Source: Anaeroplasmataceae bacterium
GTDB lineage: Bacteria > Bacillota_I > Bacilli_A > Acholeplasmatales > Anaeroplasmataceae
NCBI GenBank assembly: GCA_029067355.1
Contig: JAIEEQ010000011.1
Location: 2,208-66,207 of the forward strand
Reading direction: 5' to 3'
Length of the DNA: 64,000 bases
Part shown: piece by piece, positions 8,695 through 35,378 of the stretch
Layout of the letters: every line of letters begins with the position of its first letter
Position numbering within the stretch: the stretch's first letter is position 1
Made by a program: the position numbers and the translations under genes
The notes under the pieces: model-generated
Database searches by the model: none
Told to the model about the DNA's origin: nothing
What the model saw: the letters and a program-made list of their open reading frames with translations, nothing else

Positions 8695-9246
8695 TTGAGC
8701 TATAATGATGACTATCCATTGTTAAAGGATAAATTTAATGTTTTTCGTGTTGCAACCTATGACAAGATTATGTCCATGTTTTCTAAATTTAAATCAGGTA
8801 TTATTTATATTGGAGGGGCTTGGTGTCAAAATTGTCAGGCTGTAATTTCGTTAATTAATAAAACCGCGAAAAAAAATAAAATTAGAACAATTCTTCATTA
8901 TGATCCACATTTTGTTGATGTTTTTAAGGACGTTGTTGATTTGCGGGATTGTGGAGATTTAGAAACAAAATTAAATTATTACTATTTAATAGAAAAGCTA
9001 GAATATAAAAGTGATACCTATGTACAGGACACACTGATTCCTCGTATCAATATTCCAGCAGTTATTGGCATCAAAAATGGAATTTGCGTTGGAATTATTG
9101 ATGAGGAATATATTTTAGATGATTTAGGACTTCATAAAGAGGGCGATTCAGTGGATTGTACAGAGGATTATACTAATCAGTTAACTGAATTATTTCAAAA
9201 GGTGAAGGACAAGAAGCATATTGGCTTTCATAGAAGAAAAAAATGA
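8695..9246 (+). CDS. Thioredoxin-fold protein with a WCQNC motif (putative)
   Basis: TTG start after an AAGGGGGA RBS. GGAWCQNCQA is a CxxC motif in a thioredoxin-like context. Confidence 0.4.
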   Translation: MSYNDDYPLLKDKFNVFRVATYDKIMSMFSKFKSGIIYIGGAWCQNCQAVISLINKTAKKNKIRTILHYDPHFVDVFKDVVDLRDCGDLETKLNYYYLIEKLEYKSDTYVQDTLIPRINIPAVIGIKNGICVGIIDEEYILDDLGLHKEGDSVDCTEDYTNQLTELFQKVKDKKHIGFHRRKK

Positions 9247-10478: not shown

Positions 10479-11378
10479 ATGTATAATTTACAGCTTCTTA
10501 CATTTATTTCTGTTGCAGAGCAGGGTAGCTTTTCTAAAGCAGCAGATGCGTTGTTTATCTCTCCTACTGCGGTTATGAAGCAGATAAATGCGCTAGAAGA
10601 ACGGTTAGGGATTTCAGTTTTTTCTCGAACAAATCAAGGACTTGAGCTTACTGAAGCTGGAAAAAGTCTTTTGGAGGATGCAAAGTATATCATTGACTAT
10701 TCTTTTAAAGCAGTAGAAAAGGCAAAAAAAATTGAAGATCAGGAGAAATATCAAACCATACGCATTGGAACCTCTATAATGACGCCTGCTAAATTTCTTC
10801 TTGATGTATGGAATGATATTCACCAAAAAAATCCTTTTCTTAAACTAGAACTCATCCCCTTTGATAATAATACTGTGAATTCTGTTGAAATCTTAAAAAA
10901 TTTAGGAAAGCATATTGATATTGTTGCGGGCTTATATGATGAAGAGTTTCTAAAGGAACGGCAATGCAATGCTGCATTCTTATACAATAAAAAGCTTCTA
11001 TTTGCAATTCCTGTAACTCATGAGCTCCATAGTAAAACAGAAATAACAATGCAGGATTTAAAAAATAAAAGAGTACTATTGATTCATAAAAATTGGAATA
11101 AGTTTATTGATGCCTTAAGAGAAGATTTAATAAGAAACAATGTTATAGTTGAAGATTTTGATTTGTTTAATATTGTTGCGTTCAATCAAGCGGTGAAAGA
11201 AAATATTCCAATTATTACTGTGGAAGGTTGGGAAGATGTTCATCCTCTTTTAAAGATTGTCCCATCAAATTGGGAGTATAGAATTCCCTTTGGAATCTTC
11301 TATTCCTTACAGCCAGAAAAGCACATTAAGAATTTTATAGAAATACTACAAGAAATTACAACGGTCGAATTAGGGTAA
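10479..11378 (+). CDS. LysR-family transcriptional regulator
   Basis: N-terminal wHTH (FISVAEQGSFSKAADALFISPTAVMKQINALEERLG) plus a LysR substrate-binding domain. Confidence 0.85.
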   Translation: MYNLQLLTFISVAEQGSFSKAADALFISPTAVMKQINALEERLGISVFSRTNQGLELTEAGKSLLEDAKYIIDYSFKAVEKAKKIEDQEKYQTIRIGTSIMTPAKFLLDVWNDIHQKNPFLKLELIPFDNNTVNSVEILKNLGKHIDIVAGLYDEEFLKERQCNAAFLYNKKLLFAIPVTHELHSKTEITMQDLKNKRVLLIHKNWNKFIDALREDLIRNNVIVEDFDLFNIVAFNQAVKENIPIITVEGWEDVHPLLKIVPSNWEYRIPFGIFYSLQPEKHIKNFIEILQEITTVELG

Positions 11379-11405
11379 GCAGAAATCTGTTTACCCTTTT
11401 TGTTT
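11373..11405 (+). terminator. Intrinsic terminator after the LysR gene
   Basis: GGGTAAGCAG-AAAT-CTGTTTACCC (10-bp stem, one G.U pair) followed by TTTTTGTTT. The stop codon lies in the stem. Confidence 0.7.
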
Positions 11406-11501: not shown

Positions 11502-12389
11502 ATGAAATATGTAACATTATCAAATGGTGTAAAGATGCCAATGCTGGGATATGGTGTTTATCAGGTTTCTAAGGATGAATGTGAGCGTTGTGTTCTTGAT
11601 GCCCTTTCTTTAGGATATCGTCATATTGATACAGCACAAAGCTATTTTAATGAGGAGGAGGTAGGAAATGCGATTGTAAAATCTGGTATACCTAGAGAAG
11701 AAATATTTATTACAACTAAAGTTTGGTTGGAGCATTATGGGTATGAGGAAACAAAAAAATCAATTTATGATTCGTTATGTAAATTACAAACCAGTTATAT
11801 TGATTTGGTTTTACTTCATCAGCCTTTTGCAGATATTTATGGAGCTTGGAGAGCTTTAGAGGATTTATATGCGGATGGAAAGATTAAAGCTATTGGTATT
11901 TCTAACTTTTATCCAGACAGAATGATAGATATTTGTAGCTTTGCCCGGATAAAGCCAATGGTTAATCAAATTGAGCTTCATCCTTTAAATCAGCAGATAG
12001 ATGCTCAAAAATGGAATGAAAAGTATGGGGTACAGGTGGAGGCTTGGGCTCCATTTGGAGAAGGCCGTGGCGGATTATTTACAAATGAAGTGATTGCAGA
12101 AATTGGTAAGAAGTATAATAAAACAAATGCTCAGGTGATATTACGCTGGGAGCTACAACGAGGGATTGTTATCATCCCTAAGTCTGTACATAAGGAGCGT
12201 ATGGCACAGAATCTAGATGTGTTTGATTTTGAATTGACAGAAGAGGATATGAAGGTAATGTCAAGCTTGGATAAACAAGAGAGTTCCTTTTTCTCTCACA
12301 GAGATCCAAATATGGTAGAATGGTTTGCTAAGATGGTAGAAGAAAGAAAGCATAATAAAAACCACAAGAAGGAAAAAAAGAATTGGTAA
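11502..12389 (+). CDS. Aldo/keto reductase (2,5-diketo-D-gluconate reductase-like)
   Basis: GYRHIDTAQSY, LHQP and IPKS motifs typical of the AKR superfamily. Confidence 0.9.
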   Translation: MKYVTLSNGVKMPMLGYGVYQVSKDECERCVLDALSLGYRHIDTAQSYFNEEEVGNAIVKSGIPREEIFITTKVWLEHYGYEETKKSIYDSLCKLQTSYIDLVLLHQPFADIYGAWRALEDLYADGKIKAIGISNFYPDRMIDICSFARIKPMVNQIELHPLNQQIDAQKWNEKYGVQVEAWAPFGEGRGGLFTNEVIAEIGKKYNKTNAQVILRWELQRGIVIIPKSVHKERMAQNLDVFDFELTEEDMKVMSSLDKQESSFFSHRDPNMVEWFAKMVEERKHNKNHKKEKKNW

Positions 12390-12397
12390 GGAGAAAA

Positions 12398-13051
12398 ATG
12401 AACATGAAAAAGCTAATTTCAATTTTAGGAACTGCACTTTGCTTTCTTTTCCTGTTGGCATCCTGTGGAAAAGAAGCTGAGGTTCCGCCTATTGTCCCTG
12501 ATGAAAATCGTCCAACATTTGAGGATGCAACTACCTTAGTCATCTATTTTTCACAGCCAGATAATGTAGATAATAGTTCCGTAGTCATTGAAGGAGAAAT
12601 CTTAGGAAATACACAGTATATGGCATATGTTATTCAAGAAAATACGAATGCAGATATCTTTCGTATTCTTCCTGAAATCCCTTATCCAACAGATCATAGT
12701 ACACTTGTAGATTTAGCAAGTGAGGAAAAAAGTCAGGGAGCACGTCCAGCAATAAAGGATACTATCAAAAATTTTGAAAAATATGATGTCATATTTGTTG
12801 GATATCCAAATTGGTGGGGAGATATGCCAATGATCTTATATACACTTTTTGATACCTATGATTTTAGCAATAAGGTGATTATTCCATTTAATACACATGG
12901 TGGAAGTGGTTTTTCTAATACTATTTCAACAATCAAAAGGCTTGAGCCTCTGGCAGAAGTAAAGGATGGGAAATCTATTTCAAGAAATCATATTCAAGAC
13001 GCAGAACAAGAGATTATAGATTGGGTTGTTCAGTTAGGCTTTAAAAAATAA
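12398..13051 (+). CDS. Flavodoxin-like lipoprotein
   Basis: AAGGAG RBS and an LLASC lipobox. VIYFS...GYPNWWGDMPM...IIPFNTHGGSG matches the short flavodoxin-like family. Confidence 0.7.
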   Translation: MNMKKLISILGTALCFLFLLASCGKEAEVPPIVPDENRPTFEDATTLVIYFSQPDNVDNSSVVIEGEILGNTQYMAYVIQENTNADIFRILPEIPYPTDHSTLVDLASEEKSQGARPAIKDTIKNFEKYDVIFVGYPNWWGDMPMILYTLFDTYDFSNKVIIPFNTHGGSGFSNTISTIKRLEPLAEVKDGKSISRNHIQDAEQEIIDWVVQLGFKK

Positions 13052-13068
13052 AAAAGGAGAAAGACAAA

Positions 13069-13626
13069 ATGAAAAAGAATTTTGGAGCACAGACATGGGT
13101 ATATCCTATGCCAGTGTTTATTATTGCAACATATGATGAAAATGGAAATCCAGATGCTATGAATGCAGCATGGGGAGGGATTGTAGACAGAGGATATATT
13201 GGATTATGTCTGTCAGCTTCCCATAAAACCACAAAGAATATAATAAAAAATAAAGCTTTTACAGTTAGCGTTGCAGATACTAAGCACAGGATTGAAGCAG
13301 ATTATGTAGGAGTAGAGTCAGCAAATCAAGTTCCTAATAAGATAGAAAAATCAGGCTTTACTATGGTGAAAAGTGAGTTTGTCAATGCACCTGTTATAAA
13401 TGAGCTTCCAATGGCTTTAGAATGTGAGTATATAAAAACAACTCAAGAGGGTCTTATTATAGGAAAAATTATAAATGTCTGTGCTGATGAGGAGGTACTA
13501 TCTGAAAATGGGAAAATTGATCCTGCAAAATTTTCTCCAATCACCTTTGACCCCGTGAATAATACGTATATTGCCTTAGGGAATCCAGTTGGTAATGCAT
13601 TTTCTGATGGGACAAAGCTAAAGTGA
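13069..13626 (+). CDS. Flavin reductase-like FMN-binding domain protein (cytoplasmic)
   Basis: Split-barrel flavin reductase pattern (PVFIIATYDENGNPDAMNAAWGG...). No signal peptide. Confidence 0.7.
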   Translation: MKKNFGAQTWVYPMPVFIIATYDENGNPDAMNAAWGGIVDRGYIGLCLSASHKTTKNIIKNKAFTVSVADTKHRIEADYVGVESANQVPNKIEKSGFTMVKSEFVNAPVINELPMALECEYIKTTQEGLIIGKIINVCADEEVLSENGKIDPAKFSPITFDPVNNTYIALGNPVGNAFSDGTKLK

Positions 13627-13627
13627 T

Positions 13628-14611
13628 ATGGAAAAGAGAAGATTAGGAAAAACGGATTTATTTGTTAATCCTGTTGGTCTTGGATGTATGGGCTTATCTC
13701 ATGCTTATGGGACAGCGACAGATGAGAGTGCTGCTATTCAATTTTTGAGAGAAGCCTATGAGGCTGGATATAATTTTTTTGATACAGCTGAATGCTATAC
13801 TGGTCAAAATGAAGATGGTACTACAAGCAATAATGAAAGTATAGTTGGTAGGGCTTTAAAGGGGTTTAGAAAAATGGTTATTATTGCAACCAAGTTTGGG
13901 GTTTCTCATAAGGGAGAATATTTGGAATTGGATTCCTCACCCAAAAGAATTAGAGAATCTCTTGAAGGATCTCTTGCTAGATTACAAACCAATTATATAG
14001 ACTTATATTATCAACATAGAATTGACCCTAAGGTAGCACCAGAGGTGGTAGCTTCTGTAATGAAGGAATTTATTGCTGAGGGCAAGATAAAGGCTTGGGG
14101 AATCAGCGAAGCTAATGAGGAGTACATAAGAAGAGCACATGCTGTTTGTCCAGTTACAGCAATACAAAATCGATATTCTATGCTTGCAAGAGGATATGAA
14201 AGTTTATTTCCTCTTTGTGAGGAATTAGGAATAACCTTTGTAGCTTTTTCACCTTTAGGAAATGGGTTTTTATCCTGTATTTATAATGAAAATTCAACAT
14301 TTGAAAAAGGGGATTTTAGAAATTCAATGCCTCAATATACAGAAGAAGGATTCAAAAGAGCAAAAGCTCTTATTGAATTACTAAAGACAATGGCAGCAAA
14401 AAAGAAGACTTCTCCTGCACAACTATCTTTGGCTTGGATGCTATGCAAAAATAAGAATCTAGTAACGATTCCTGGTAGCAGAAAAATAGAAAATATGAAA
14501 TCCAATTTTGAAGCAGGAAATGTGATTATTACAAAGGAAGAACTTATTCAAATAGATGATTTATTAGATCAATCAAATATCCCTGTGTTTGAGGGACATC
14601 AATCTAAATAA
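13628..14611 (+). CDS. Aldo/keto reductase (AKR11/YhdN-like)
   Basis: LGCMGLSHAYG, FDTAECY and YYQHRIDP motifs. Confidence 0.9.
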   Translation: MEKRRLGKTDLFVNPVGLGCMGLSHAYGTATDESAAIQFLREAYEAGYNFFDTAECYTGQNEDGTTSNNESIVGRALKGFRKMVIIATKFGVSHKGEYLELDSSPKRIRESLEGSLARLQTNYIDLYYQHRIDPKVAPEVVASVMKEFIAEGKIKAWGISEANEEYIRRAHAVCPVTAIQNRYSMLARGYESLFPLCEELGITFVAFSPLGNGFLSCIYNENSTFEKGDFRNSMPQYTEEGFKRAKALIELLKTMAAKKKTSPAQLSLAWMLCKNKNLVTIPGSRKIENMKSNFEAGNVIITKEELIQIDDLLDQSNIPVFEGHQSK

Positions 14612-14626
14612 AAGGAAGTGGAAGAT

Positions 14627-16462
14627 ATGAAAAAAATTTTAAAATCAATATATTTATTACTTGGATGCTTTATGGTTTTATTTGTTTTGGCATCTTGTAC
14701 AACTCATGGAGGAGAAAATCCTCCAACAAATGATACTCCTCCTTCTGAGGAGGAGATAACCCTAGACAACGACTTTGTTGTATCCAGCAAGATTTTGATT
14801 GTCTATTTTTCAAAAACGAATACAACAGAGGACGTTGCTTTAAGAATTAAAGAATATACAAATGCAGATATTTTTGAAATTGAAAGAAAAGAACCTTATC
14901 CAGAGGAATACACACCAACAACAGAGGAAGCCAAGGAAGAAAAGGACACGAATGCTCGACCACTTTTGAAAGCTTATTTACCTAAGGAAGTTATTTCACA
15001 ATATGATACTATTTTTGTTGGGTTTCCTATTTGGTGGCATACTGCCCCTATGCCTGTTCTAAGCTTTCTCAATTTCTATGATTTTTCTGGAAAAACCATT
15101 TATACCTTCTGTACAGCTGCTTCTAGTCCAATTACAGAAAGTACCGCTGATATCAAGAGCAATAGCAAAGGAGCCACAGTGATTGAGGGAAAGAAGTTTT
15201 CTAGAAATGATAGTGGTATAGAGGAATGGATTCATTCTTTAAATTTGGAAATTAAAAATGAAGTAGGAGAAGAAACAGCTGGTCTAACCTATGAAAAAAA
15301 TGGTAATTCTTATACTGTGACAGGTTCAGGAGATGCAGAAGAAATTGTTATTCCTGCAATACATGAAGGATTACCTGTAACTGAAATAGGAGAAAGCGCC
15401 TTTGCATATAGCAGACATAATGCAAAAATTACCTCTGTTGTCCTTCCTGATTCAGTTGAGATTATTGGATTAAATGCTTTTTACAATAGAAGTGAGCTTA
15501 TATCTGTAAAAATAGGAGAAAACAGCCAACTTAAAACGATAGGAAAAAATGCATTTTCAGGAAACCATTCTTTAACAAGTATTTATATTCCGTCAGGTGT
15601 TGTTGAAATAGGAGATAGTGCTTTTAATAATTGTGGTGCATTAGATTCTATTGTGGTTGCGAGTGATAATCCAATTTATTCTAGTGAGGGAAATGCTTTA
15701 ATTGAAACAGCAAGTCATACCCTACTACGAGGAACAAATCGTACAACAATCTCTACTGGTGTTACAAGCATTGCAGATTCTGCATTTAGAAGGTGTACAA
15801 CTTTAGAAGAACTATCCATTCCATCAACTATTCAAAAAATTGGAAATTATTTTATTGCGGATAGCAGTATAACAAAAATTGTGTATCAGGGTACAGAAGA
15901 GCAATGGAACGCCATAGATAAAAGTGATAGAATGTGGAATTATGGAAATCGTGATGTTGAAGTAGAATTCAAAACAGAATCTAAAATTTTAATTGCTTAT
16001 TTTTCTTGGTCAGGAACAACAACGAGATTAGCTGAACATATTAAGAATCAAATTCCTGATGCCACAATGTTTCAGATTGAAAGAGTAACCCCATATAGTA
16101 CAGATTATAATACTGTGGCTTATGGAGAGGCAAAGGAGGAAGCGGATAGTAATGCTCGTCCTCCAGTTAAAAATTTACTTTCCGAAGAAGAGATGAGTGA
16201 GTTTGATATAATTATTCTTGCTTATCCAATTTGGTGGCATACTGCCCCTATGGTGGTAGGAACTTTCCTTGAAACCTACAATTTGGAAAATGTTGATATT
16301 TATCCAATCACACAATCAGCTTCTATGAATACTGCACAATTTGCAGAGTCCTTTGAATTTATAAAGGAGTGTGCAAAAAATGCCAATGTTTTTGAAGGCC
16401 TTGGAACAAAGAGTACAAGCGTGATTGATGATTATTTATTGAAATATAGTTTATTGCCATAG
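14627..16462 (+). CDS. Lipoprotein: flavodoxin-like domain, BspA-type leucine-rich repeats, then a second flavodoxin-like domain
   Basis: LASC lipobox. Two copies of the YFS..(T/G)TT...PIWWHTAPM module, which share an identical 26-nt stretch at about 15030 and 16225. They flank IGxxAFxxCxxLxSIxIP-type repeats. Confidence 0.75.
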   Translation: MKKILKSIYLLLGCFMVLFVLASCTTHGGENPPTNDTPPSEEEITLDNDFVVSSKILIVYFSKTNTTEDVALRIKEYTNADIFEIERKEPYPEEYTPTTEEAKEEKDTNARPLLKAYLPKEVISQYDTIFVGFPIWWHTAPMPVLSFLNFYDFSGKTIYTFCTAASSPITESTADIKSNSKGATVIEGKKFSRNDSGIEEWIHSLNLEIKNEVGEETAGLTYEKNGNSYTVTGSGDAEEIVIPAIHEGLPVTEIGESAFAYSRHNAKITSVVLPDSVEIIGLNAFYNRSELISVKIGENSQLKTIGKNAFSGNHSLTSIYIPSGVVEIGDSAFNNCGALDSIVVASDNPIYSSEGNALIETASHTLLRGTNRTTISTGVTSIADSAFRRCTTLEELSIPSTIQKIGNYFIADSSITKIVYQGTEEQWNAIDKSDRMWNYGNRDVEVEFKTESKILIAYFSWSGTTTRLAEHIKNQIPDATMFQIERVTPYSTDYNTVAYGEAKEEADSNARPPVKNLLSEEEMSEFDIIILAYPIWWHTAPMVVGTFLETYNLENVDIYPITQSASMNTAQFAESFEFIKECAKNANVFEGLGTKSTSVIDDYLLKYSLLP

Positions 16463-16471
16463 GAGATAAAT

Positions 16472-16846
16472 ATGAGAGAAATTAAAGAAAAGGCCATTCT
16501 ACAAATAGGGAATAGCAATATAAATATTGGCTTTTATGATATGGAAATTGCTTCTGAATTTATAAAGCAATTTCCATTGAACTTGGTTTTGGAACAAGCC
16601 ATGAACCGTGAATATTGTAGTGATGCTTTACCTTTTGTACCAGTTTGTAAAGAGCATAATCAAACTTTCTTTGAGGTTGGAGATTTAGCGTATTGGAAAA
16701 AAGGAAATGCGTTTGCGTTTTTCTATGCAGAAGGGATAAGTCAGGAGGTTCCTTCTGGCATTGTCGTGCTTGGTAAGATTTTGTCAGATTTATCCATATT
16801 TAGAGATATGCCTGCAAGTATCAAGATTATATTGAAGAAGCAATAA
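16472..16846 (+). CDS. Cyclophilin-like-fold protein (cytoplasmic)
   Basis: GDLAYWKKGNAFAFFY...VVLGKI pattern of the cyclophilin-like family that commonly neighbours flavodoxins. Confidence 0.55.
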   Translation: MREIKEKAILQIGNSNINIGFYDMEIASEFIKQFPLNLVLEQAMNREYCSDALPFVPVCKEHNQTFFEVGDLAYWKKGNAFAFFYAEGISQEVPSGIVVLGKILSDLSIFRDMPASIKIILKKQ

Positions 16847-16851
16847 AGCCT

Positions 16852-17394
16852 ATGAAAAAACTTTTGAATATCTTATTATTAGCTATATTATTCCTTTTGT
16901 CCTCTTGTGGGACATCTGATTTACCAGATTCTTCTTTGGATTTTAATCCTCCTAAGGATGATACTGAAAATATTAAGGAAGAGGATAAGAGAGGAAAAGT
17001 GGATACAGAAGTCTATAACACAGCATCTGTTTATGTTAAATTAAAAATCATAGCAGGCAATATAGAAATTGAAGCGATCCTGTTTGATAATCAAACCTCA
17101 AGAAGTGTTGCAGAAATGCTACCCTTAACCATAGAGATATGGCAACCTGCCTTAGGGTTTGCGAGTGCTTTTGATTTGCCACAGAGCTTTCCTTATTTTG
17201 AGCAGGAGCCTCCTCAAAGAGGCTATGAACTTGGGTCCCTAGCTTATTGGATGCCAGGACCAAGTATAGCTATGATTTATAATGATGATAGATACCAGAC
17301 GGTTGTTCCAGTTGTTCCGATTGGAAAGATCAATGGGGATATACGTTTCTTAGAAAGCTATGAAGGAACAATAACAATTGAAGCTGTGGAATGA
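16852..17394 (+). CDS. Cyclophilin-like-fold lipoprotein
   Basis: LSSC lipobox. The GSLAYWMPGPSIAMIYND...PIGKI pattern is paralogous to the preceding ORF. Confidence 0.55.
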   Translation: MKKLLNILLLAILFLLSSCGTSDLPDSSLDFNPPKDDTENIKEEDKRGKVDTEVYNTASVYVKLKIIAGNIEIEAILFDNQTSRSVAEMLPLTIEIWQPALGFASAFDLPQSFPYFEQEPPQRGYELGSLAYWMPGPSIAMIYNDDRYQTVVPVVPIGKINGDIRFLESYEGTITIEAVE

Positions 17395-17407
17395 AGGAGG
17401 TTCTAAA

Positions 17408-18100
17408 ATGGCAAAAAAAATAATCAAATTATTTGTTGATGCTGTTATGTTTGTTTTGTTTTTACTTCTTATGGAGGAACATTTAATATCAGATGGGATA
17501 CATGAATGGTTAGGGATTACTTTATTTTTGTTGTTTATTATTCATCTTCTATTAAACATAAAGTGGTTTTCCAAAATAGGGAAAGGAAAATATTCAGGTT
17601 ATCGAATTACCCTGCTTGTTGTAGATTTAAATCTGGCAGTAGCTATGATATGCTGTATACTCAGTTCCATTTTTGTTTCAGGCGTAGTCTTTGCAGGTCT
17701 GAATTTGCGAGGTAAGGAGTTTGGCAGAACCTTACATTTGGTATCTACAGCATGGGCATTTATACTAATGGCTATCCATTTGGGATTGCATTGGAATATG
17801 GCTGTGGGTATGACAAAGAAGTTACCACTTTCCAAATTCAAAAGAAGTATTTTAAAATGGGGGTTTCGTGTTATTGTTTTAGGCTTGTGTATCTATGGAA
17901 TTGTTATATTTATTGAACGTAGATTTTACGAGGAGTTATTCTTTATAACCTCCTTTAAAAGCTTTGATATGTCTGTGCCTACCTTTGTTTATTTCTTTCA
18001 AACCTTTGCATTAGCAGTAGTTTTTATAGGAGCAACATATTATATAAAATCAATTTGTATTTTTGTAAAGAAGGAGCAACGAAATGAAAAAACGAATTAA
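17408..18100 (+). CDS. DUF4405-like integral membrane protein with two His pairs (possible di-haem b-type)
   Basis: GAAGGAGG RBS before the ATG at 17408. His32/His46 and His110/His124 each lie 14 residues apart in predicted TM helices. Confidence 0.5.
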   Translation: MAKKIIKLFVDAVMFVLFLLLMEEHLISDGIHEWLGITLFLLFIIHLLLNIKWFSKIGKGKYSGYRITLLVVDLNLAVAMICCILSSIFVSGVVFAGLNLRGKEFGRTLHLVSTAWAFILMAIHLGLHWNMAVGMTKKLPLSKFKRSILKWGFRVIVLGLCIYGIVIFIERRFYEELFFITSFKSFDMSVPTFVYFFQTFALAVVFIGATYYIKSICIFVKKEQRNEKTN

Positions 18101-18686
18101 TATAATCACAGGACTTATTTTAATTATTTTATCAATGCTATGGGCAAGCTCTTGTACCTCTGCAATAGCTATTGATAATGAACCAGAAAAGCCAGTAACA
18201 GGAAATAGTGAAGCTTTGGTAGTATATTTTTCATGGTCTGGGAATACGCAGATTTTAGCCAATATAATAGCAGAGAAAAGAAATGCGGATTTGTTTCGTA
18301 TAGTTCCAGAGGTTCCTTATACAAATGAAGATGTATTTAGTAGAGCACAGGAAGAGCTTAACAATGGAGTAAGACCGCCACTAGCAGAGCATATTGATCA
18401 TGAAATTATGGACAGATATGAAATTATTTATATTGGATTTCCTGTATGGTGGTATGATCTTCCTATGCCTGTTTGGAGTTTTTTAGAAGAGTATGATTTT
18501 TCTGGGAAAACCATAGTACCCTTCTTTTCTCATAATGGTAGTTCCTCAGGGGCAAGCAGTATTTCAACAATTCGTAGGCTTTGCCCTAATTCAACGATAA
18601 TAGAAAGGTATTTATCTATACGTGGGTCAAATGTAAATAGTGCTGAGGCAGACGTTATACAGTGGATTAATAATTTAAATATATAG
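18084..18686 (+). CDS. Flavodoxin-like lipoprotein
   Basis: ASSC lipobox. VVYFSWSGNTQ (FMN phosphate-loop-like), GFPVWWYDLPMP and FFSHNGSSSG motifs. Confidence 0.7.
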   Translation: MKKRINIITGLILIILSMLWASSCTSAIAIDNEPEKPVTGNSEALVVYFSWSGNTQILANIIAEKRNADLFRIVPEVPYTNEDVFSRAQEELNNGVRPPLAEHIDHEIMDRYEIIYIGFPVWWYDLPMPVWSFLEEYDFSGKTIVPFFSHNGSSSGASSISTIRRLCPNSTIIERYLSIRGSNVNSAEADVIQWINNLNI

Positions 18687-18699
18687 GAGAAATAAGAAA

Positions 18700-19407
18700 A
18701 TGAATAGACCTTATACAATATGTCATATATTTTGCGCTCTTGATGGCGCAATCGTAGGTAACTATATGTACGCTCCTGAAACAACGGCAGCAAGGGAACA
18801 GTATGGAAAGTTACGCGCAACCTTTAACAGCAATGCCATTTTATATGGAACAACGACAATGCTTGATTTTTGTGATGGATATGTAGATAATTTAAAAGCA
18901 AGCCAGCCAATCAATCGTGAGGACTATATTGTGGCATCTCAAGAAAAAAATTATGTTATTGCCATAGATTCTTTAGGAAAGCTTGCCTATTCTAATAATT
19001 GCTTAGTAAGACATGGAATAAAACAGCAAATTATTGTTGTATTGTCTACAAAAGTGGAGGATGCCTATCTGCAATACCTTCAACAGCTGAAAATTTCTTA
19101 TATTTTTGCAGGAGAAACTTCTTTAGATTGTGAAATTATTATGAAAAAATTAAAAGAGAAATTTGGAATAGAACGGCTTTTAATAGCAGGTGGAGGCTAT
19201 ACAGATTGGGCATTTGCAGATGCGGGAATGATAGATGAGCTAAGCTTGGTTTTAGCTCCAGCAGCAGATGGAGAACATCAGGTTAGTGTGTTTCAAAGAA
19301 ATGAATCTTCAAGGCATTCCTCTATAACCTTTACACTAAAAGAGGTTCAGCAGGTAAATGGGAATGGAGTATGGCTACGCTATACCTTCAATAATGCCAA
19401 AAAATAA
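18700..19407 (+). CDS. RibD C-terminal / dihydrofolate-reductase-like family protein
   Basis: ALDGAI...ILYGTTT...LLIAGGG...DELSLVLAP pattern. Confidence 0.65.
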   Translation: MNRPYTICHIFCALDGAIVGNYMYAPETTAAREQYGKLRATFNSNAILYGTTTMLDFCDGYVDNLKASQPINREDYIVASQEKNYVIAIDSLGKLAYSNNCLVRHGIKQQIIVVLSTKVEDAYLQYLQQLKISYIFAGETSLDCEIIMKKLKEKFGIERLLIAGGGYTDWAFADAGMIDELSLVLAPAADGEHQVSVFQRNESSRHSSITFTLKEVQQVNGNGVWLRYTFNNAKK

Positions 19408-19421
19408 AGGGGTGAGTAGGA

Positions 19422-20060
19422 ATGAAGGTTTTATTAGTCAATGGTAGCCCCCACAAAGAGGGGTGCACTTATACAGCACTTAAAGAGATTGCAGATACTT
19501 TAGAATCCTGTGGAATTGAAACAGAAATCTTTTGGATTGGCAATCATAACTTTGGTGGATGTATCGCCTGCAAAAGTTGTGTAAAGACAGGGCAATGCGT
19601 ATACAAGGATTCAGTGAATGAGTGTCGAAAAAAAGCGTATGAGGCAGATGGATTTATATTTGGAACGCCTGTTCATTATGCGGCAGCAAGTGGTTCAATG
19701 ACCTCCTTTATGGACAGATTGTTTTATAGTGAATTATGTGGAAATGGGAATAAGGCATTTTATCTTAAGCCTACCGCAGCAGTAATGTCTGCTCGGCGTG
19801 CAGGAACAACTGCAACTTTTGATCAGATGAACAAGTATTTTACGATTCAGGAAATGCCAATCGTATCCTCTCGGTATTGGAATATGGTACATGGTACAAA
19901 TCCAGAAGAGGTTAGAAAGGATGCAGAAGGTATGCAGACAATGCGTATCTTGGCGAGAAATATGGCTTATATGCTAAAGTGTAGGGAAGTGGCTGAAAAA
20001 GCAGGAATATCTGCACCTAAACGTGAGCCAAGCGTGTTCACAAACTTTATAAGAGAGTAA
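19422..20060 (+). CDS. NADPH-dependent FMN reductase / iron-sulfur flavoprotein-like
   Basis: MKVLLVNGSPHKEGCTY N-terminus and a Cys cluster (GGCIACKSCVKTGQC) typical of this family. Confidence 0.75.
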   Translation: MKVLLVNGSPHKEGCTYTALKEIADTLESCGIETEIFWIGNHNFGGCIACKSCVKTGQCVYKDSVNECRKKAYEADGFIFGTPVHYAAASGSMTSFMDRLFYSELCGNGNKAFYLKPTAAVMSARRAGTTATFDQMNKYFTIQEMPIVSSRYWNMVHGTNPEEVRKDAEGMQTMRILARNMAYMLKCREVAEKAGISAPKREPSVFTNFIRE

Positions 20061-20066
20061 AATCTT

Positions 20067-20942
20067 ATGAAAAAAATAATAATAGGTATTATTGTCGTTT
20101 GCGTATCAATTATATCATCGTTTACGCTTTTCAGTTGTCATAGCAAAGACAATACGAACGTGGGTGGTAGCAACGCTGGTCAGATGGGAAACGAAGGAAA
20201 TATGATAGATAGCTCTGTTGTTACGATGGGGACGGAAACCTATCGCGGGTTTCTTGTGGATAACGTTTATCACTCCAAAAATAATGGTGATATTCATTTT
20301 CATATTTATGTTCCCAAAAGTTACGACGGAAACAAGCCTTATGCACTTTACGTTTCGTTGTGCGGATATGGTGGATACTACTTTCAAGGCGTTGGCATAA
20401 ATCTACGTCAAGAAAACTTTGTATTTGAAGCGCAAAAATATAATTTAGAAATGATTATCGTTGCACCACAACTAAATGATTGGGGGAATATATCTGCTAA
20501 TCAAACGATAGCATTGACTGAATATTTAATAAGTGCATATAACATTGAGAAATCAAAAGTGTATATGAACGGCTATTCAGGTGGTGGAGAAACATTGTCA
20601 CTTGTTATGGCAAAGAAGCCTGAATTGTTTTCAGCTGTTTTACACGTCAGTTCTATTTGGAATGGAGAAGTTCAACCACTTGCAAACAATAAAGTACCGG
20701 TTTATTTTGTGATAGGAGAGCGTGACGAGTATTACGGATCAACACGCATCAGCAGAACGTATGAAACGCTTTGCGGACTTTATAGGGCGCAAGGGCTGAG
20801 CGACGAACAAATAAACAATTTGGCGGTGTTGGACGTAAAGCCGCAGAGTTACTTTACAGAACGTGGTGCAAAAAGTCAACATGGCGGTGGAGGTTTGTTT
20901 GCTTTTGATGAGAATATTATGGATTGGCTATTCAATAGGTAA
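20067..20942 (+). CDS. Alpha/beta-hydrolase esterase lipoprotein
   Basis: LFSC lipobox and a GYSGGG nucleophile elbow (GxSxG). Visibly higher G+C than neighbouring genes. Confidence 0.65.
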   Translation: MKKIIIGIIVVCVSIISSFTLFSCHSKDNTNVGGSNAGQMGNEGNMIDSSVVTMGTETYRGFLVDNVYHSKNNGDIHFHIYVPKSYDGNKPYALYVSLCGYGGYYFQGVGINLRQENFVFEAQKYNLEMIIVAPQLNDWGNISANQTIALTEYLISAYNIEKSKVYMNGYSGGGETLSLVMAKKPELFSAVLHVSSIWNGEVQPLANNKVPVYFVIGERDEYYGSTRISRTYETLCGLYRAQGLSDEQINNLAVLDVKPQSYFTERGAKSQHGGGGLFAFDENIMDWLFNR

Positions 20943-20957
20943 AATGAAGGAGACGCA

Positions 20958-22832
20958 ATGATGAAAAAATTTATAGTTTTTGTTTTGGCAGTCATATTAT
21001 CTTTTTGCACATTGACTGCTTGTACAAGTGGAATTATGGATGAAGGAAATAATGAGGTTGTTACGCCTATTCCCAATATGATTTCAGAGATTCCGAAAGC
21101 CTTTTATTCAATTGCAAATGAACAAGGTACGCTTGTTGAATTGTGGTATAATACATATGAATCATTTTCTTATGGAACCACAAATTTGCCCCTATCTAAA
21201 CGGGCAATTGTTTATTTGCCTTTTGGATATTCTGATGGAATTAAATATAATGTTATGTATATGATGCATGGTGGCTGGAGCAATGAAGCAGGGCTTTTGG
21301 GAACCCCTGAAAGTCCAACGAATTTTAAGAATGTTATTGATAATGCGATAGAAAATGGTATTTTTGCACCACTCATTATTGTATGTCCAACATATAACAA
21401 TACCAATGCAAATGGACAGGATAGTGATAATTATAGTCTAGCCTTGCAACTTACACATAATTACCACAATGAGCTTGTGAACGATTTAATTCCAGCAGTA
21501 GAGGGCAGATATTCCTCTTATGCTCAAAGTACGAATACAATGGACTTGATTGCTTCCCGCGACCATCGTTCGTTTATGGGATTTTCTATGGGTAGCGTTA
21601 CTACTTGGCGTACTTTTGAATATTGTCTTGATTATTTCCGTTATTTTTTCCCTTCAAGTGGTTCAATCACGTCTAGTGGAAGTTATATGGAAAATATTGT
21701 TAAGAAGTCAGGTTATACAGCAAACGATTTTTTCATTTATGCAATGTCAGGTACAAACGATTTTGCTTATTCAGGATTTACTGCACAAATAAATGCTATG
21801 CTTGCAACTGATACTTTTATAAAAGCAGATAACAAAAAAGATGGCAATCTTGCCTACAACGTCAAAGAGGGATATTCTCATAATGGTATGGCACAAATAG
21901 AATATTTTTATAACGCACTTTCTTGGGTATGGAAAGGAAAAAACGAGGTGGCACAATCAGACTATACAGCAGAAACAAAAATTACTGATGTGATAAACGA
22001 TCCTGTATTTGGAAATTGGGGAAGAATGATATTCCCTGTAAATAGTGGATACTATGGTGGCACAACGCTTGGCAATCTATCACTTACTTGGTATCAAAAT
22101 ATCAATGTCAACCACACAGTAGAAATTTGTAATTATTTTAAGAATCAAACGCTAGAAGGGAATCAGGTGTTTTATGATATTTATACAGAGGGGGAAAAGA
22201 TGGCTGATCCACACAAAGCGGACACAGGCTTGTTCTTTTTCAGAGGTGAGAAAAATGCACCCTTTGCTGTAACCTGTGCAGGTGGAGGCTGGGCCTATGT
22301 TGGGGCTATGCATGATAGTTTTCCTCATGCCTTAGAATTAAGCAAGAGAGGCTATAATGCTTTTGCAATCATCTATCGTCCAGGAGCCCAGACAGCTTAT
22401 GAGGATTTAGCTCGTGCCATATCCTTTATTTTTATGAATGCTAAAGCATTGGGTGTAGATACAAATGGATATTCTGTTTGGGGTGGTAGTGCAGGTGGAA
22501 GAATGACAGCAACGATTGCCTCCTATGGAGTAGAAGCATTTGGAGGAAATTCTTTAATACCTAAGCCAAGTACAGCTGTGATTCAGTACACAGGCCATAC
22601 AGATTATAATCCTATGGGCGAAGTGCCTACCTTTGTAACGGTTGGCGAAAATGATGGAATCGCTAATTATCAAACGATGAAAAGAAGAATAGATATTTTA
22701 AATGCTATGGGAGTTCCTACGGAGTATCATGCTTATAGGGGCTTAGGACATGGATTTGGTTTGGGTGTTGGTACAATTGCAGAAGGATGGCTAGATTTAG
22801 CAGTAGAATTTTGGATGAATCACAAGAGTTAA
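20958..22832 (+). CDS. Two-domain esterase lipoprotein (esterase-family N-domain plus alpha/beta-hydrolase C-domain)
   Basis: LTAC lipobox and two nucleophile elbows, GFSMGS and GGSAGG, plus a C-terminal HGFG motif. Confidence 0.7.
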   Translation: MMKKFIVFVLAVILSFCTLTACTSGIMDEGNNEVVTPIPNMISEIPKAFYSIANEQGTLVELWYNTYESFSYGTTNLPLSKRAIVYLPFGYSDGIKYNVMYMMHGGWSNEAGLLGTPESPTNFKNVIDNAIENGIFAPLIIVCPTYNNTNANGQDSDNYSLALQLTHNYHNELVNDLIPAVEGRYSSYAQSTNTMDLIASRDHRSFMGFSMGSVTTWRTFEYCLDYFRYFFPSSGSITSSGSYMENIVKKSGYTANDFFIYAMSGTNDFAYSGFTAQINAMLATDTFIKADNKKDGNLAYNVKEGYSHNGMAQIEYFYNALSWVWKGKNEVAQSDYTAETKITDVINDPVFGNWGRMIFPVNSGYYGGTTLGNLSLTWYQNINVNHTVEICNYFKNQTLEGNQVFYDIYTEGEKMADPHKADTGLFFFRGEKNAPFAVTCAGGGWAYVGAMHDSFPHALELSKRGYNAFAIIYRPGAQTAYEDLARAISFIFMNAKALGVDTNGYSVWGGSAGGRMTATIASYGVEAFGGNSLIPKPSTAVIQYTGHTDYNPMGEVPTFVTVGENDGIANYQTMKRRIDILNAMGVPTEYHAYRGLGHGFGLGVGTIAEGWLDLAVEFWMNHKS

Positions 22833-31373: not shown

Positions 31374-31437
31374 AGACAACACCTCTTTACTTAATTATAA
31401 GGTGTTTAGCTTGATATATCAAGTTTTTTCGTTAAAA

Positions 31438-31456
31438 TATCGAAATATTTTCGATA
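31438..31456. promoter_or_regulatory. Perfect inverted repeat TATCGAAA-TAT-TTTCGATA (candidate operator)
   Basis: 8-bp arms seen directly in the lacI-malQ divergent intergenic region. A further TTTTCGAT copy lies at about 31477. Confidence 0.4.
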
Positions 31457-31491
31457 AAAGTATTCGTTTTTTGAAAATTTTCGATTTTGCT

Positions 31492-31530: not shown

Positions 31531-31574
31531 ACAAATATATTGTACGATAAAAAGAATAAGAAGGAGGAGTAACC

Positions 31575-35364: not shown

Positions 35365-35378
35365 AGATTTTTAACTAC

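Follow-up and report, generated by a model that had tools for sequence, protein, structure and literature searches.

The genes between 11502 and 22832 probably constitute a 13-gene, LysR-controlled operon organized around a transmembrane electron-export chain; that this operon exports electrons through a DUF4405 membrane protein to flavodoxins on the cell surface is, on balance, the reading I favour. The genes form a single close-packed block on the plus strand, with a LysR gene upstream (Table 1). The genes listed in the initial annotation lie where it put them, all on the plus strand, but its limits of 12398 to 20060 were too narrow, since the block actually extends from the aldo-keto reductase gene at 11502 through the end of the esterase gene at 22832. 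Six of its products are lipoproteins: three of the Flavodoxin_4 family, which carry four such domains between them, one cyclophilin-like protein and two esterases. The others include a six-helix DUF4405 protein and cytoplasmic reductases; no transporter gene lies within the block. Past the hairpin that separates LysR from the operon, the plus strand has no strong terminator-like hairpin until 25929. The LysR protein reaches the cut-off of no specific subfamily. Of 39 related loci, 22 likewise have a LysR gene ahead of the block, and the order LysR, aldo-keto reductase (295 aa), Flavodoxin_4 is kept in loci L002, L008, L009, L018, L022, L056 and L057. The aldo-keto reductase-ferredoxin gene that precedes LysR, the C-terminus of whose product matches RnfC/ferredoxin-like families, may also be associated with the block. 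The Pfam assignments of the genes from 12398 to 20060 all exceed the Pfam cut-offs.

Table 1. Features of the block and of its upstream flank, by position in the window.
Position	Strand	Feature	Evidence
9321..10430	+	Aldo-keto reductase with C-terminal 2x[4Fe-4S]-type ferredoxin-like region	Precomputed Pfam Aldo_ket_red and Fer4 families
10479..11378	+	LysR-family transcription regulator, presumed regulator of the operon	HTH_1 and LysR_substrate domains
11372..11397	+	Terminator-like hairpin between LysR and operon, 11 bp stem and T tract	
11502..12389	+	Cytoplasmic aldo-keto reductase (DkgA-like), operon gene 1	Pfam; NCBIfam DkgA-like 263 bits, below equivalog cut-off
12398..13051	+	Lipoprotein Flavodoxin_4, PRK06934 type, one domain	PF12682 E 5.6e-28; NF005389 184 bits vs cut-off 172
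13069..13626	+	Cytoplasmic flavin-reductase-like (flavoredoxin-type) protein	PF01613 (Flavin_Reduct) E 7.6e-14
13628..14611	+	Cytoplasmic aldo-keto reductase	PF00248 E 8.8e-70
14627..16462	+	Lipoprotein Flavodoxin_4 - BspA-type leucine-rich repeats - Flavodoxin_4	PF12682 (two stretches) and PF13306 (LRR_5)
16472..16846	+	Cytoplasmic cyclophilin-like protein without signal peptide, paralogue of 16852	PF18050 (Cyclophil_like2) E 3.5e-15
16852..17394	+	Cyclophilin-like lipoprotein	PF18050 (Cyclophil_like2) E 1.3e-16; lipobox LSSC, Cys19
17408..18100	+	DUF4405 six-helix membrane protein	PF14358, 36.1 bits vs cut-off 26.7
18084..18686	+	Lipoprotein Flavodoxin_4, short canonical YFSWSGNT loop	PF12682 E 9.7e-31
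18700..19407	+	Cytoplasmic RibD_C-family (pyrimidine-reductase/DHFR-like) protein	PF01872 E 5.1e-15
19422..20060	+	Cytoplasmic iron-sulfur-flavoprotein-type FMN reductase	PF03358 (FMN_red) E 1.8e-30
20067..20942	+	Lipoprotein alpha/beta hydrolase (S9/PHB-depolymerase-like esterase)	Lipobox Cys24; weak Peptidase_S9; esterase-like NCBIfam matches
20958..22832	+	Lipoprotein two-domain esterase, final gene of the block	Lipobox LTAC, Cys22; Esterase PF00756 and BD-FAE (precomputed Pfam)

The two histidine pairs noticed at first in the DUF4405 protein, His32/His46 and His110/His124, are confirmed and lie in the second and fourth of six hydrophobic segments; all four residues are invariant among 24 homologues with identities down to 31%. 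The AF2 model of the protein (pLDDT 84) consists of six long helices. Its predicted loops contain 13 lysines and arginines inside against 5 outside, which puts His32 and His110 near the outer face of the membrane and His46 and His124 near the inner one. The protein is thus predicted to be a di-haem b cytochrome, with His32 and His110 serving the outer haem and His46 and His124 the inner haem. Haem b binding has been shown for a purified DUF4405 relative from an Oscillospiraceae bacterium (PMC11334425). The initial annotation described DUF4405-type proteins as candidate electron conduits, which is correct in direction but too weak, since both haem b binding and the link to Flavodoxin_4 are published (PMC11334425). 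A Foldseek search with the DUF4405 model returned no similar solved structure (best E 1.1), so that kinship to MsrQ/NOX-type cytochromes rests on the histidine geometry, on a published AlphaFold comparison and on weak, sub-threshold Pfam matches, to Ferric_reduct for the protein itself (E 0.0094) and to Ni_hydr_CYTB for some homologues.

Linkage was assessed in 39 distinct DUF4405 loci, each flanked by at least 1.5 kb on either side; they come from Clostridia, spirochaetes, Coriobacteriia and Elusimicrobia. A Flavodoxin_4 gene directly adjoins DUF4405 on the same strand in 30 of the 39, and its product has a lipobox in 26 of those 30. The cyclophilin-like lipoprotein is accompanied by Flavodoxin_4 in 14/15 metagenome loci, and the association supposed initially thus holds far beyond this genome. 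Fusions were surveyed among the best 147 family representatives, 13 of which are at least 290 aa long; the 10 of these 13 that were scanned include six DUF4405::Flavodoxin_4 proteins and one DUF4405::FMN_bind protein, the latter with a DAVSGAT flavinylation site. The natural DUF4405::Flavodoxin_4 fusions independently tie the two parts together. An extra seventh hydrophobic helix precedes the flavin domain in all seven flavin-domain fusions, indicating that the C-terminus of the DUF4405 core is cytoplasmic and that the flavin domain is outside the cell. One fusion (P0235) has a short, non-flavinylatable YFSWGGNT loop like that of the 18084 protein. In the block itself, the stop of DUF4405 and the start of 18084 overlap by 17 nt, exactly as in L002, L056 and L057, which makes the 18084 protein the likely direct partner of DUF4405. 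The electron export proposed at the outset therefore finds comparative support in adjacency, in fusions and in the haem b-binding relative, and none of the contrary findings named at the outset that could be looked for in silico turned up. Judging from gene neighbourhoods, not every surface Flavodoxin_4 needs DUF4405 as a neighbour, since DUF4405 is within reach in only 4 of the 15 cyclophilin-like lipoprotein loci and L058 encodes Flavodoxin_4::esterase proteins without it.

Lipoboxes were called with a PROSITE-type rule, which also selects the positive controls in the window (a solute-binding protein, a pullulanase and other expected surface proteins). The rule is satisfied by the four proteins originally credited with such signals, namely those of 12398 (LASC, Cys23), 14627 (LASC, Cys24), 16852 and 18084 (ASSC, Cys24). 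The claim of four flavodoxin-like domains on three lipobox proteins stands, but only two of these domains have the exact YFSWSG(N/T)T loop ascribed to them. Integrity of the FMN site was judged by alignment to PDB 3KLB: the 12398 (E 9e-24) and 18084 (E 1.6e-24) proteins keep all three FMN-loop regions, although in the former a conserved insertion of 17 residues separates strand beta1 from helix alpha1 (YFS-QPDNVDNSSVVIEGEIL-GNT). In the 14627 protein, whose architecture is shared by L008, L009 and L056, the loop of domain 1 reads YFSKTNTT, and domain alignment shows the third FMN loop to be diverged in both domains.

The core idea, DUF4405 acting with extracytosolic Flavodoxin_4, is already known from a system described in 2024 in which the flavodoxin is flavinylated by ApbE (PMC11334425). 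The block resembles that system, and the chief difference is the missing ApbE. As first stated, no ApbE was found in the window (the whole 64-kb stretch analysed) by phmmer or with a profile built from locus sequences; EetA and EetB were likewise absent by both methods, and no flavin exporter lies within the 64 kb. Unlike in the published system, the conserved D-x-x-[ST]-[GS]-A-[ST] flavinylation motif is absent from every exported protein of the block; a lone SGAS in 18084 falls within the third FMN loop and is SGAG in orthologues. The absence of a conserved motif suggests that FMN is presumably held non-covalently by the surface domains and not attached by ApbE, as in 3KLB, where the cofactor is bound non-covalently (PMC11334425). 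The Sec-exported flavodoxins would then have to take up FMN on the outside, with no flavin exporter encoded in the cluster. ApbE occurs in only 4/39 DUF4405 loci (absent from 35/39) and in 0/15 cyclophilin-like loci. The block further differs from the published system in its extra surface partner, the cyclophilin-like lipoprotein of a conserved family, in the Flavodoxin_4::esterase fusions of its relatives, and in its host, a gut mollicute. Cytochromes and quinones are said to be absent from mollicutes (PMC7930009); the haem would therefore probably need to come from scavenging, of which the window bears no sign.

Pfam bears out the interleaved cytoplasmic enzymes of the initial annotation: Flavin_Reduct at 13069, aldo-keto reductase at 13628, RibD_C at 18700 (below all NCBIfam equivalog cut-offs) and FMN_red at 19422. 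The last carries CIACKSCVKTGQC (CX2CX2CX5C), the compact cysteine motif of iron-sulfur flavoproteins (Isf), which is present in 20 of 23 FMN_red proteins from related clusters. Isf-type FMN_red genes occur in 14/39 DUF4405 loci, often directly beside DUF4405 (as in L002, L018, L005, L012 and L040), and the 19422 protein is a candidate electron donor to DUF4405. Counterparts of the flavin-reductase-like 13069 protein also recur in related loci.

From these data I infer the direction of electron flow, the partners, the donor and the acceptor. NAD(P)H or reduced ferredoxin would reduce soluble cytoplasmic flavoproteins, for which the Isf-type [4Fe-4S]/FMN protein 19422 and the 13069 protein are candidates; these would deliver electrons to the inner haem of DUF4405 (His46/His124), whence they would travel across the membrane by way of the outer haem (His32/His110) to the FMN of the Flavodoxin_4 lipoproteins tethered to its outer face. 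The first flavodoxin acceptor would probably be the translationally coupled 18084 protein, with 12398 and 14627 next. The MsrQ system, in which a cytosolic NADH oxidoreductase feeds a haem b membrane protein and thereby an extracytoplasmic enzyme (PMC12525009), provides a precedent for such a path.

An acceptor outside the cell would finally take up electrons from the reduced surface flavodoxins; the cyclophilin-like lipoprotein, as a small-molecule-binding barrel, and the pair of surface esterases probably share in handling it. My guess, drawn purely from gene content, is that the acceptor consists of quinones, carbonyls or other electrophiles of dietary origin that can permeate membranes and are released from plant phenolic esters. 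It is prompted by the lack of a transporter, by the presence in the block of both a cytoplasmic and a surface form of the cyclophilin-like protein, and likewise of flavoproteins, by the recurring partners in related loci (LysR or MerR regulators, AKR, Fe-ADH, cupin and CMD), by Flavodoxin_4::BD-FAE (esterase) fusions in L056 and L058, and by the plant-fibre niche suggested by pectate-lyase and starch-degrading types among the surface proteins of the host. Reduction of these electrophiles would take place both outside the cell and in the cytoplasm, where the aldo-keto reductases, the cyclophilin-like paralogue without a lipobox and the RibD_C protein would act.

The two cyclophilin-like paralogues are as first described, 16852 with a lipobox and 16472 cytoplasmic, and such a pair is also found in L056. 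By its sequence, the 16852 protein is a member of a strongly conserved extracytoplasmic family, with 122 homologues; of 20 that were inspected, 150-200 aa in length, 19 have a lipobox cysteine. The AF2 model of the 16852 protein resembles TM1367 and AF2241. The position of the 20067 esterase is kept in L002, L056 and L057, where a 20958-type esterase is again the final gene.

The window is of low GC content (about 34%), nearly all its genes lie on the + strand, and its host family, the Anaeroplasmataceae, is placed in the Mollicutes by NCBI taxonomy. The 13 genes of the block, whose products are named here by the position at which each gene starts, are separated by 1-17 nt or overlap slightly. 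No strong terminator-like site was seen on the + strand within the block, and the gene that follows starts beyond a 172-nt gap, with a promoter-like site, which indicates a unit larger than the one delimited in the initial annotation: the genes recognized there stand, but the unit runs from 11502 to 22832 and takes in two more lipoproteins, both esterases, that had not been listed. The block contains no transporter. Pfam scans of most other large ORFs of the window returned housekeeping genes, a starch-utilisation locus, a general ECF module and surface glycan-degrading proteins.

Genes of the block and its upstream border, in window coordinates
Feature	Position	Strand	Remarks
LysR	10479-11378	+	precedes block
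Terminator-like hairpin	11372-11397	+	after LysR
AKR (aldo-keto reductase)	11502-12389	+	Pfam above gathering score
Flavodoxin_4 lipoprotein	12398-13051	+	Pfam above gathering score; lipobox rule
Flavin-reductase-like protein	13069-13626	+	Pfam above gathering score
AKR	13628-14611	+	Pfam above gathering score
Flavodoxin_4 - LRR - Flavodoxin_4 lipoprotein	14627-16462	+	Pfam above gathering score; lipobox rule
Cyclophilin-like protein, cytoplasmic	16472-16846	+	Pfam above gathering score
Cyclophilin-like lipoprotein	16852-17394	+	Pfam above gathering score; lipobox rule
DUF4405 membrane protein	17408-18100	+	Pfam above gathering score
Flavodoxin_4 lipoprotein	18084-18686	+	Pfam above gathering score; lipobox rule
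RibD_C protein	18700-19407	+	Pfam above gathering score
FMN_red protein	19422-20060	+	Pfam above gathering score
Esterase lipoprotein	20067-20942	+	weak precomputed Pfam match; lipobox rule
Esterase lipoprotein	20958-22832	+	weak precomputed Pfam match; lipobox rule

Lipoproteins were predicted with a PROSITE-type rule: an uncharged hydrophobic core, the pattern [LIVMFWSTAG]2-[LIVMFYSTAGCQ]-[AGS]-C with its cysteine at position 15-35, and K or R within the first seven residues. All six proposed surface proteins of the block obey it, among them the four (12398, 14627, 16852 and 18084) for which lipoboxes had been claimed at the outset. Elsewhere in the window the rule picks out the maltodextrin-binding protein, the pullulanase, the CBM26 protein and the giant repeat protein, proteins that one would expect to be lipoproteins in such cells and that serve as a check on it. 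The signal peptides of the exported flavodoxins carry KK rather than RR, which points to export by Sec. The LysR regulator has a single cysteine and reaches no subfamily cut-off, OxyR included, and was for these reasons rejected as an OxyR-type peroxide sensor; E. coli OxyR has two redox cysteines. Just upstream of LysR lies an AKR fused to a C-terminal 2x[4Fe-4S] ferredoxin-like region (9321-10430), whose electrons may come from iron-sulfur clusters, not NAD(P)H. A 183-aa ORF (8695-9246) matches no Pfam or NCBIfam family, contains the CxxC motif GGAWCQNCQ and may be thioredoxin-like.

The membrane protein 17408 matches PF14358 (DUF4405) with 36.1 bits, against a cut-off of 26.7 (E = 9.6e-9). 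It has six hydrophobic segments, and its AF2 model consists of six long helices (pLDDT 84, pTM 0.82). The two histidine pairs first noticed in the sequence are indeed located in helices, His32 and His46 in the second segment and His110 and His124 in the fourth, and these four residues, together with His128, are invariant in 24 homologues with identities down to 31%. Lysines and arginines number 13 in the N-terminus, loops 2-3 and 4-5 and the C-terminus, and 5 in the remaining loops, an asymmetry indicating that both termini are cytoplasmic, which would put His32 and His110 on the outer side and His46 and His124 on the inner side. Two bis-His haems stacked across the membrane would require just this predicted placement. 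The motifs HEWLG and RxFYEE are conserved on the outer side. In the cytoplasmic loop after helix 2 (residues 59-66, 17582-17605), G60 and R66 are invariant and K59 and Y62 nearly so (KGKY...R); this loop could be a docking site for the electron donor, or a flavin site like R77/R78 of MsrQ.

A purified DUF4405 protein from an Oscillospiraceae bacterium is pink and has haem b spectra; as in MsrQ and PepSY proteins, its AlphaFold model shows four histidines placed centrally among six helices, and its cluster also contains apbE, a flavinylated Flavodoxin_4 and a flavin exporter (Huang et al. 2024, mSystems, PMC11334425). By analogy, the window protein is predicted to be a haem b cytochrome, haem b having been shown only for the Oscillospiraceae homologue. 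The statement in the initial annotation that DUF4405 proteins had been flagged as candidate transmembrane electron conduits was therefore right but too modest, since the core mechanism is already published (PMC11334425). A Foldseek search of the PDB with the AF2 model returned no solved structure with significant resemblance (best E 1.1), and Ferric_reduct (PF01794) scores 16.4 bits, below its cut-off of 28; on these two grounds, assignment of the protein to the MsrQ/NOX/STEAP superfamily was rejected. It may work like these proteins, membership not being claimed. An exhaustive profile search (E <= 1e-10) put the DUF4405 family at 3,469 clusters at 50% identity.

Natural fusions, which carry the most weight among the new evidence, bear on the orientation of the DUF4405 core and on its partner. 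Among the 147 best family representatives, 13 are at least 290 aa long, and 10 of these were scanned. Six proved to be DUF4405::Flavodoxin_4 fusions and one a DUF4405::FMN_bind fusion with a canonical DAVSGAT site, and in all seven the six-helix core is joined to the flavin domain through a further hydrophobic helix, near residues 227-250. Since FMN_bind flavinylation is an extracytosolic event, the seventh helix implies that the C-terminus of the core lies inside and the flavin domain outside, a predicted topology that agrees with the lipoprotein signals in the window. The fusion P0235 has a short YFSWGGNT loop with no modification site, which indicates that a non-flavinylated Flavodoxin_4 domain can also be the fused external partner. 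In P0235 and in another family representative, P0242, DUF4405 is fused to an FGE-sulfatase (formylglycine-generating-enzyme-like) domain, followed in P0235 by Flavodoxin_4; P0242 has an N-terminal MerR domain as well, either a real sensor fusion or a gene-call artefact.

Gene linkage was followed in 49 loci from species-representative genomes and in loci obtained by exact protein look-ups, the ORFs being annotated by phmmer with seed proteins of the window and of two loci that carry ApbE. These genomes belong to gut and rumen Clostridia, Treponema, Sphaerochaetaceae, Coriobacteriia and one Elusimicrobium. Thirty-nine distinct loci extend 1.5 kb or more to each side of DUF4405; this sample, which stems from a genome scan built on 10 closer sequences, is biased toward relatives keeping HEWLGIx[LV]F. 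Flavodoxin_4 directly adjoins DUF4405 on the same strand in 30 of them (26 with a lipobox), so that the co-occurrence which the initial annotation asked to be checked does extend beyond this genome. The same loci contain LysR (22 of 39) or MerR (13) regulators, AKRs (23), FMN_red proteins and BD-FAE/Esterase-type esterases (14 each), flavin-reductase-like proteins (8) and cyclophilin-like proteins (7); ApbE is present in 4 and absent from 35. The overlap between the DUF4405 stop and the Flavodoxin_4 start is 17 nt in the window and in three related loci (L002, L056, L057), and its conservation suggests that the two genes are translationally coupled. The protein 19422, read earlier as an Isf/NADPH-FMN-reductase-like enzyme, has the FMN_red fold (PF03358, E = 1.8e-30) and carries CIACKSCVKTGQC, the compact cysteine motif of iron-sulfur flavoproteins (Isf; spacing CX2CX2CX4-7C), as do 20 of the 23 FMN_red proteins of related clusters; it is classified here as an Isf-type FMN_red protein with putative cluster binding. 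On an Oscillospiraceae chromosome (L043, CP091718.1), the homologous cluster is split into many short ORFs (LysR, esterases, DUF4405), as a result either of pseudogenisation or of assembly frameshift errors.

All four Flavodoxin_4 domains of the block match PF12682 above cut-off. The proteins 12398 and 18084 are related to PDB entry 3KLB (E about 1e-24; 35-38% identity in a MAFFT alignment) and retain its three FMN-loop regions, 12398 with an insertion, whereas the third FMN loop has diverged in both domains of 14627; the FMN site is predicted to be intact in the former two proteins. The YFSWSG(N/T)T loop originally ascribed to these domains is present in two of them, but 12398 has a conserved 17-residue insertion and the first domain of 14627 reads YFSKTNTT. 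The structural-genomics entries 3KLB, 4ICI and 4J8P are Flavodoxin_4 proteins like the window domains and have no assigned function; the window proteins differ in being predicted lipoproteins and, for 12398, in the insertion. The latter (xPDNxDNSxVxIxGExL; residues 51-67, 12548-12598) lies before the FMN phosphate loop, and PRK06934-type 17-residue insertions occur also in L005, L008, L009, L019-L021, L023 and L044. Across loci, three loop types can be distinguished: a short WSGNT loop, the 3KLB form; an insertion of PRK06934 type, xPDNxDNSxVxIxGExLGNTQYMA, which has no flavinylation core; and a longer loop with DAVxSAT/S motifs, found in the ApbE-positive L024 and L027 and also, with no ApbE nearby, in L016, L025, L031 and L036-L038. 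The window contains the first two types only.

The two cyclophilin-like proteins match PF18050 (E = 1.3e-16 and 3.5e-15), and the lipobox rule bears out their description as one lipoprotein (16852) and one cytoplasmic paralogue (16472). Similarity of these Cyclophil_like2 proteins to true cyclophilins is low. Among the 122 homologues of 16852, 20 were inspected, all of 150-200 aa, and 19 of them have the lipobox cysteine; the motifs MLPLTV..WHPAPxFARAFDLP, YELGSLAYW and TVVPVVPIGK are nearly invariant among those inspected. The AF2 model of the 16852 ectodomain (barrel pLDDT > 90) matches TM1367 (1ZX8; target-normalised TM-score 0.75, E = 5e-7), AF2241 (2NNZ) and, in the Pictet-Spenglerases KslB and McbB, the barrel that binds the substrate (E about 1e-4), with identities of about 13-22%. 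Neither TM1367 nor AF2241 has a known function, and the window family differs from them in being extracytoplasmic and in having its own strongly conserved motifs. Judging from the model, a small-molecule-binding or catalytic role fits better than prolyl isomerisation. Literature searches on Cyclophil_like2/PF18050 and on this gene combination returned nothing.

Four contexts of 16852 homologues were inspected, two of which (L056 and L057) are syntenic with the window, gene for gene. A metagenome scan added 47 loci, mostly from human gut. In the 15 that are distinct and have at least 1.5 kb on either side, the cyclophilin-like gene is accompanied by Flavodoxin_4 in 14, which gives this pairing too a footing outside the genome, by Fe-ADH in 13, by AKR and cupin genes in 11 each, by RibD_C in 8, by flavin-reductase-like genes in 7, by DUF4405 in 4 (within about 8 kb) and by ApbE in none. 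Some of the loci lacking DUF4405 (L072, L073, L083) are short contigs that end before the position it occupies in L088 and L091; in L058, it is absent within 9 kb. Flavodoxin_4::BD-FAE-type esterase fusions are encoded in L056 (7104-8606, 500 aa) and L058 (9513-11981, 822 aa), and tie the esterases functionally to the flavodoxins. L081 has adjoining ORFs of 1136 aa (esterase-type) and 716 aa (Flavodoxin_4-type). The gene set as a whole is a putative broad, recurrent regulon under LysR or MerR, which joins surface Flavodoxin_4, cyclophilin-like and esterase lipoproteins to cytoplasmic AKR, Fe-ADH, cupin, RibD_C, flavin-reductase-like and Isf proteins, and of which DUF4405 would be a frequent, not universal, membrane link.

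The block most likely works as an electron-export chain, a proposal whose basis, as for the other functional statements made here, is comparative genomics together with the biochemistry of a relative from a single paper. Electrons would pass from a cytoplasmic Isf-type or flavin-reductase-like flavoprotein to the inner and then the outer haem of DUF4405, from there to the FMN of the 18084 lipoprotein, and through the other surface flavodoxins to an extracellular acceptor; I infer the donor, flavin loading, haem loading and the acceptor alike. MsrQ offers a precedent in which a soluble flavin reductase supplies such a small haem b membrane protein: in the E. coli MsrPQ system, a cytosolic NADH oxidoreductase passes electrons to the haem b/FMN membrane protein MsrQ and thence to periplasmic MsrP (PMC12525009). 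The proposed logic is the same, from soluble flavin reductase to small bis-His haem b membrane protein to extracytoplasmic redox enzyme, and in neither case would the quinone pool be the donor; the block differs in showing no significant sequence or fold match and in having a flavodoxin-type lipoprotein, not a molybdoenzyme, as external partner. In flavin-based extracellular electron transfer of the Listeria type, electrons flow from Ndh2 and DMK through EetA/EetB to the FmnB-flavinylated lipoprotein PplA (PMC9973259). The block resembles it in having a predicted FMN-bearing surface lipoprotein as the last cell-bound carrier in a Gram-positive-type envelope, and an ECF energising module is present in the window. 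In contrast, the window has no FMN_bind, FmnB/ApbE, EetA/EetB, Ndh2 or quinone step, and the membrane step would be performed by a haem protein.

The system of Huang et al. (PMC11334425) shares with the block the PF14358 protein with six helices and four histidines, the extracytosolic Flavodoxin_4 (PF12682) and the adjacency of their genes. Four relatives of the window DUF4405 at 34-42% identity (L004, L005, L024, L027) are followed by ApbE, a NusG_II-type EetA and a Hpre_diP_synt_I-type EetB, exactly the published arrangement in L004 and L005; flavin export requires EetB, an ECF-S-like subunit (PMC9973259). By contrast, phmmer and profile searches of the 64-kb window found no ApbE, EetA or EetB (best E 0.2, 3.5 bits, which is noise), in line with the first report that it holds no ApbE/FmnB-type transferase, and no flavin-specific S component of the RibU/EetB type was seen there. 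The block also has partners not described for the published system, namely cyclophilin-like lipoproteins, lipoprotein esterases, an LRR-bearing double flavodoxin and, under LysR, cytoplasmic Isf-type, flavin-reductase-like, RibD_C and AKR enzymes. The Flavodoxin_4 domains of the window have no flavinylation site, which indicates that FMN would be bound non-covalently, and the block is presumably a non-covalent version of the published system; ApbE-less versions appear to be the majority among the loci sampled. Alternatively, one or more of the surface proteins might be flavinylated by an ApbE whose gene, like that of a flavin exporter, lies in another part of the genome, the operon then being the published system itself. 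The ApbE-bearing relatives fit this possibility, as does the 64-kb view of this genome, and the DAVxSAT/S-like loops in loci with no ApbE nearby indicate that ApbE can act in trans. It is nevertheless quite improbable, because none of the six exported block proteins has a conserved flavinylation motif, and because the loop of 18084 and of the second 14627 domain is of the short 3KLB type, WSG(N/T)T, and has no insertion to bear the Ser/Thr that is modified in the published cases (PMC11334425). The one match to D-x-x-[ST]-[GS]-A-[ST] in these six proteins, GSSSGAS in 18084, was rejected as a site, since SGAS belongs to the third FMN loop, is aligned with SGIG of 3KLB and is replaced by SGAG in four of the five other short-loop orthologues. 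The insertion of 12398 (DNSSVV) was considered as a degraded flavinylation loop and likewise rejected: a G/S-A-S/T core is missing, DNS is followed by S, T or Y, and an insertion of this type occurs, unmodified, beside a motif-bearing paralogue in the ApbE-positive L005. That a cyclophilin-like protein replaces ApbE as flavin loader is unsupported, the two occurring together in L024 and L027.

For the electron-export chain, the acceptors I propose, with low confidence, would be membrane-permeant quinone- or carbonyl-type electrophiles from dietary phenolic esters. This choice is based on the lack of a transporter in the block, the presence of the same protein types on both sides of the membrane, the flavodoxin::esterase fusions of relatives, the pectin- and starch-degrading surface proteins of the host, and the likeness of the regulators and cytoplasmic partners to Bacillus regulons for quinone and aldehyde stress. 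The block could instead consist of co-regulated stress or detoxification enzymes with no electron wire, whose surface lipoproteins act on a small molecule, toxic or nutritive, by binding, hydrolysis or sequestration (flavin capture for an auxotroph would be one example) while DUF4405 does something else, for example with another partner. The scarcity of DUF4405 near cyclophilin-like, Flavodoxin_4 and esterase genes in the metagenome loci, L058 included, agrees with this, and with no flavin exporter present a flavin-binding or scavenging role of the apo-proteins is conceivable; an ECF energising module is encoded in the window at 48044-50653. I consider it unlikely, however, because many of these loci are contigs too short to reach the DUF4405 site, because the link seen from the DUF4405 side is very tight, down to the conserved start/stop overlap, and because the DUF4405::Flavodoxin_4 fusions with their added helix make coincidence unlikely. 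Reductive iron acquisition, in which the surface esterases would cleave ester-linked (catecholate) siderophores and the flavodoxins at the surface reduce the Fe(III) to be taken up, is hinted at by the weak precomputed match of 20958 to PF00756 (Esterase), a family that presumably includes enterochelin esterase. It deserves very little credence: nothing iron-related recurs in about 90 related loci, on a screen of 18 families that held no iron-transporter or Fur/DtxR model, and the recurrent LysR/MerR, AKR, Fe-ADH, cupin and CMD partners fit carbonyl or quinone chemistry better. Finally, the same wiring might deliver electrons to oxygen or free flavins, as a NOX-like outlet on the cell surface by which a strictly anaerobic host close to the mucosa would scavenge O2 or balance its redox state. 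Both O2 and H2O2 are substrates of iron-sulfur flavoproteins in anaerobes, and O2 readily oxidises reduced FMN. The architecture parallels NOX/MsrQ-type exporters (PMC12525009). Such an outlet hardly seems likely, as it leaves unexplained the conserved esterases, the cyclophilin-like lipoproteins, the Flavodoxin_4::esterase fusions and the many AKRs, and the regulator, with its single cysteine, reaches no OxyR cut-off.

The DUF4405-Flavodoxin_4 conduit is itself already published (PMC11334425). What is new is the presumed independence from ApbE, apparently the common state among the loci sampled, the evidence from fusions and topology, the candidate Isf-type donors, the cyclophilin-like lipoprotein family, the esterase partnership and the occurrence in a mollicute, the class Mollicutes being described as devoid of quinones and cytochromes (PMC7930009). 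A tentative and more general hypothesis, which I rate as less likely than not, is that gut anaerobes, including a wall-less mollicute, export electrons independently of ApbE from a haem b DUF4405 protein to non-covalent FMN flavodoxin lipoproteins, which would be general carriers for an unrecognised extracellular reductive metabolism acting, with a new family of cyclophilin-like lipoproteins and with surface esterases, on ester-bound dietary compounds; this would be a widespread gut pathway without a characterised member, and its cytochrome the first predicted in a mollicute. Extracytosolic flavoproteins are thought to need covalent attachment by ApbE, failing which the flavin is lost outside the cell; the haem-to-flavodoxin module, here and in most sampled loci, has neither ApbE nor a modification site. 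If it works, a non-covalent flavodoxin can be a surface electron carrier, and there are more routes than those known by which fermentative gut bacteria shed electrons or disarm dietary oxidants. The analysis gives a first functional context to two large families, the Flavodoxin_4 and the Cyclophil_like2 lipoproteins, and delineates a gene set under LysR or MerR control that recurs in metagenomes of human gut and rumen and is open to direct test. A predicted cytochrome in the Anaeroplasmataceae also bears on the textbook view of mollicutes as cytochrome-less.

Other loci of the window are worth recording. A starch/maltodextrin locus (30378-47891) contains a LacI regulator, GH77, a solute-binding lipoprotein, two permeases, GH13, an 848-aa MalK-like ATPase with a lengthy extension at its C-terminus, and two lipoproteins, one a pullulanase and the other a CBM26 protein; two further lipoproteins within it (42090-43449) have no family match. 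The region 48044-51431 encodes the general ECF energising module (EcfA/A'/T: two ABC ATPases and a CbiQ-type T subunit), followed by truA. At 58932-64000, running off the end of the window, lies a gene whose product, a lipoprotein of over 1689 aa, combines a pectate lyase domain with 11 Listeria-Bacteroides repeats (PF09479) and is predicted to be a giant surface pectin-degrading protein in a genome of mollicute lineage.
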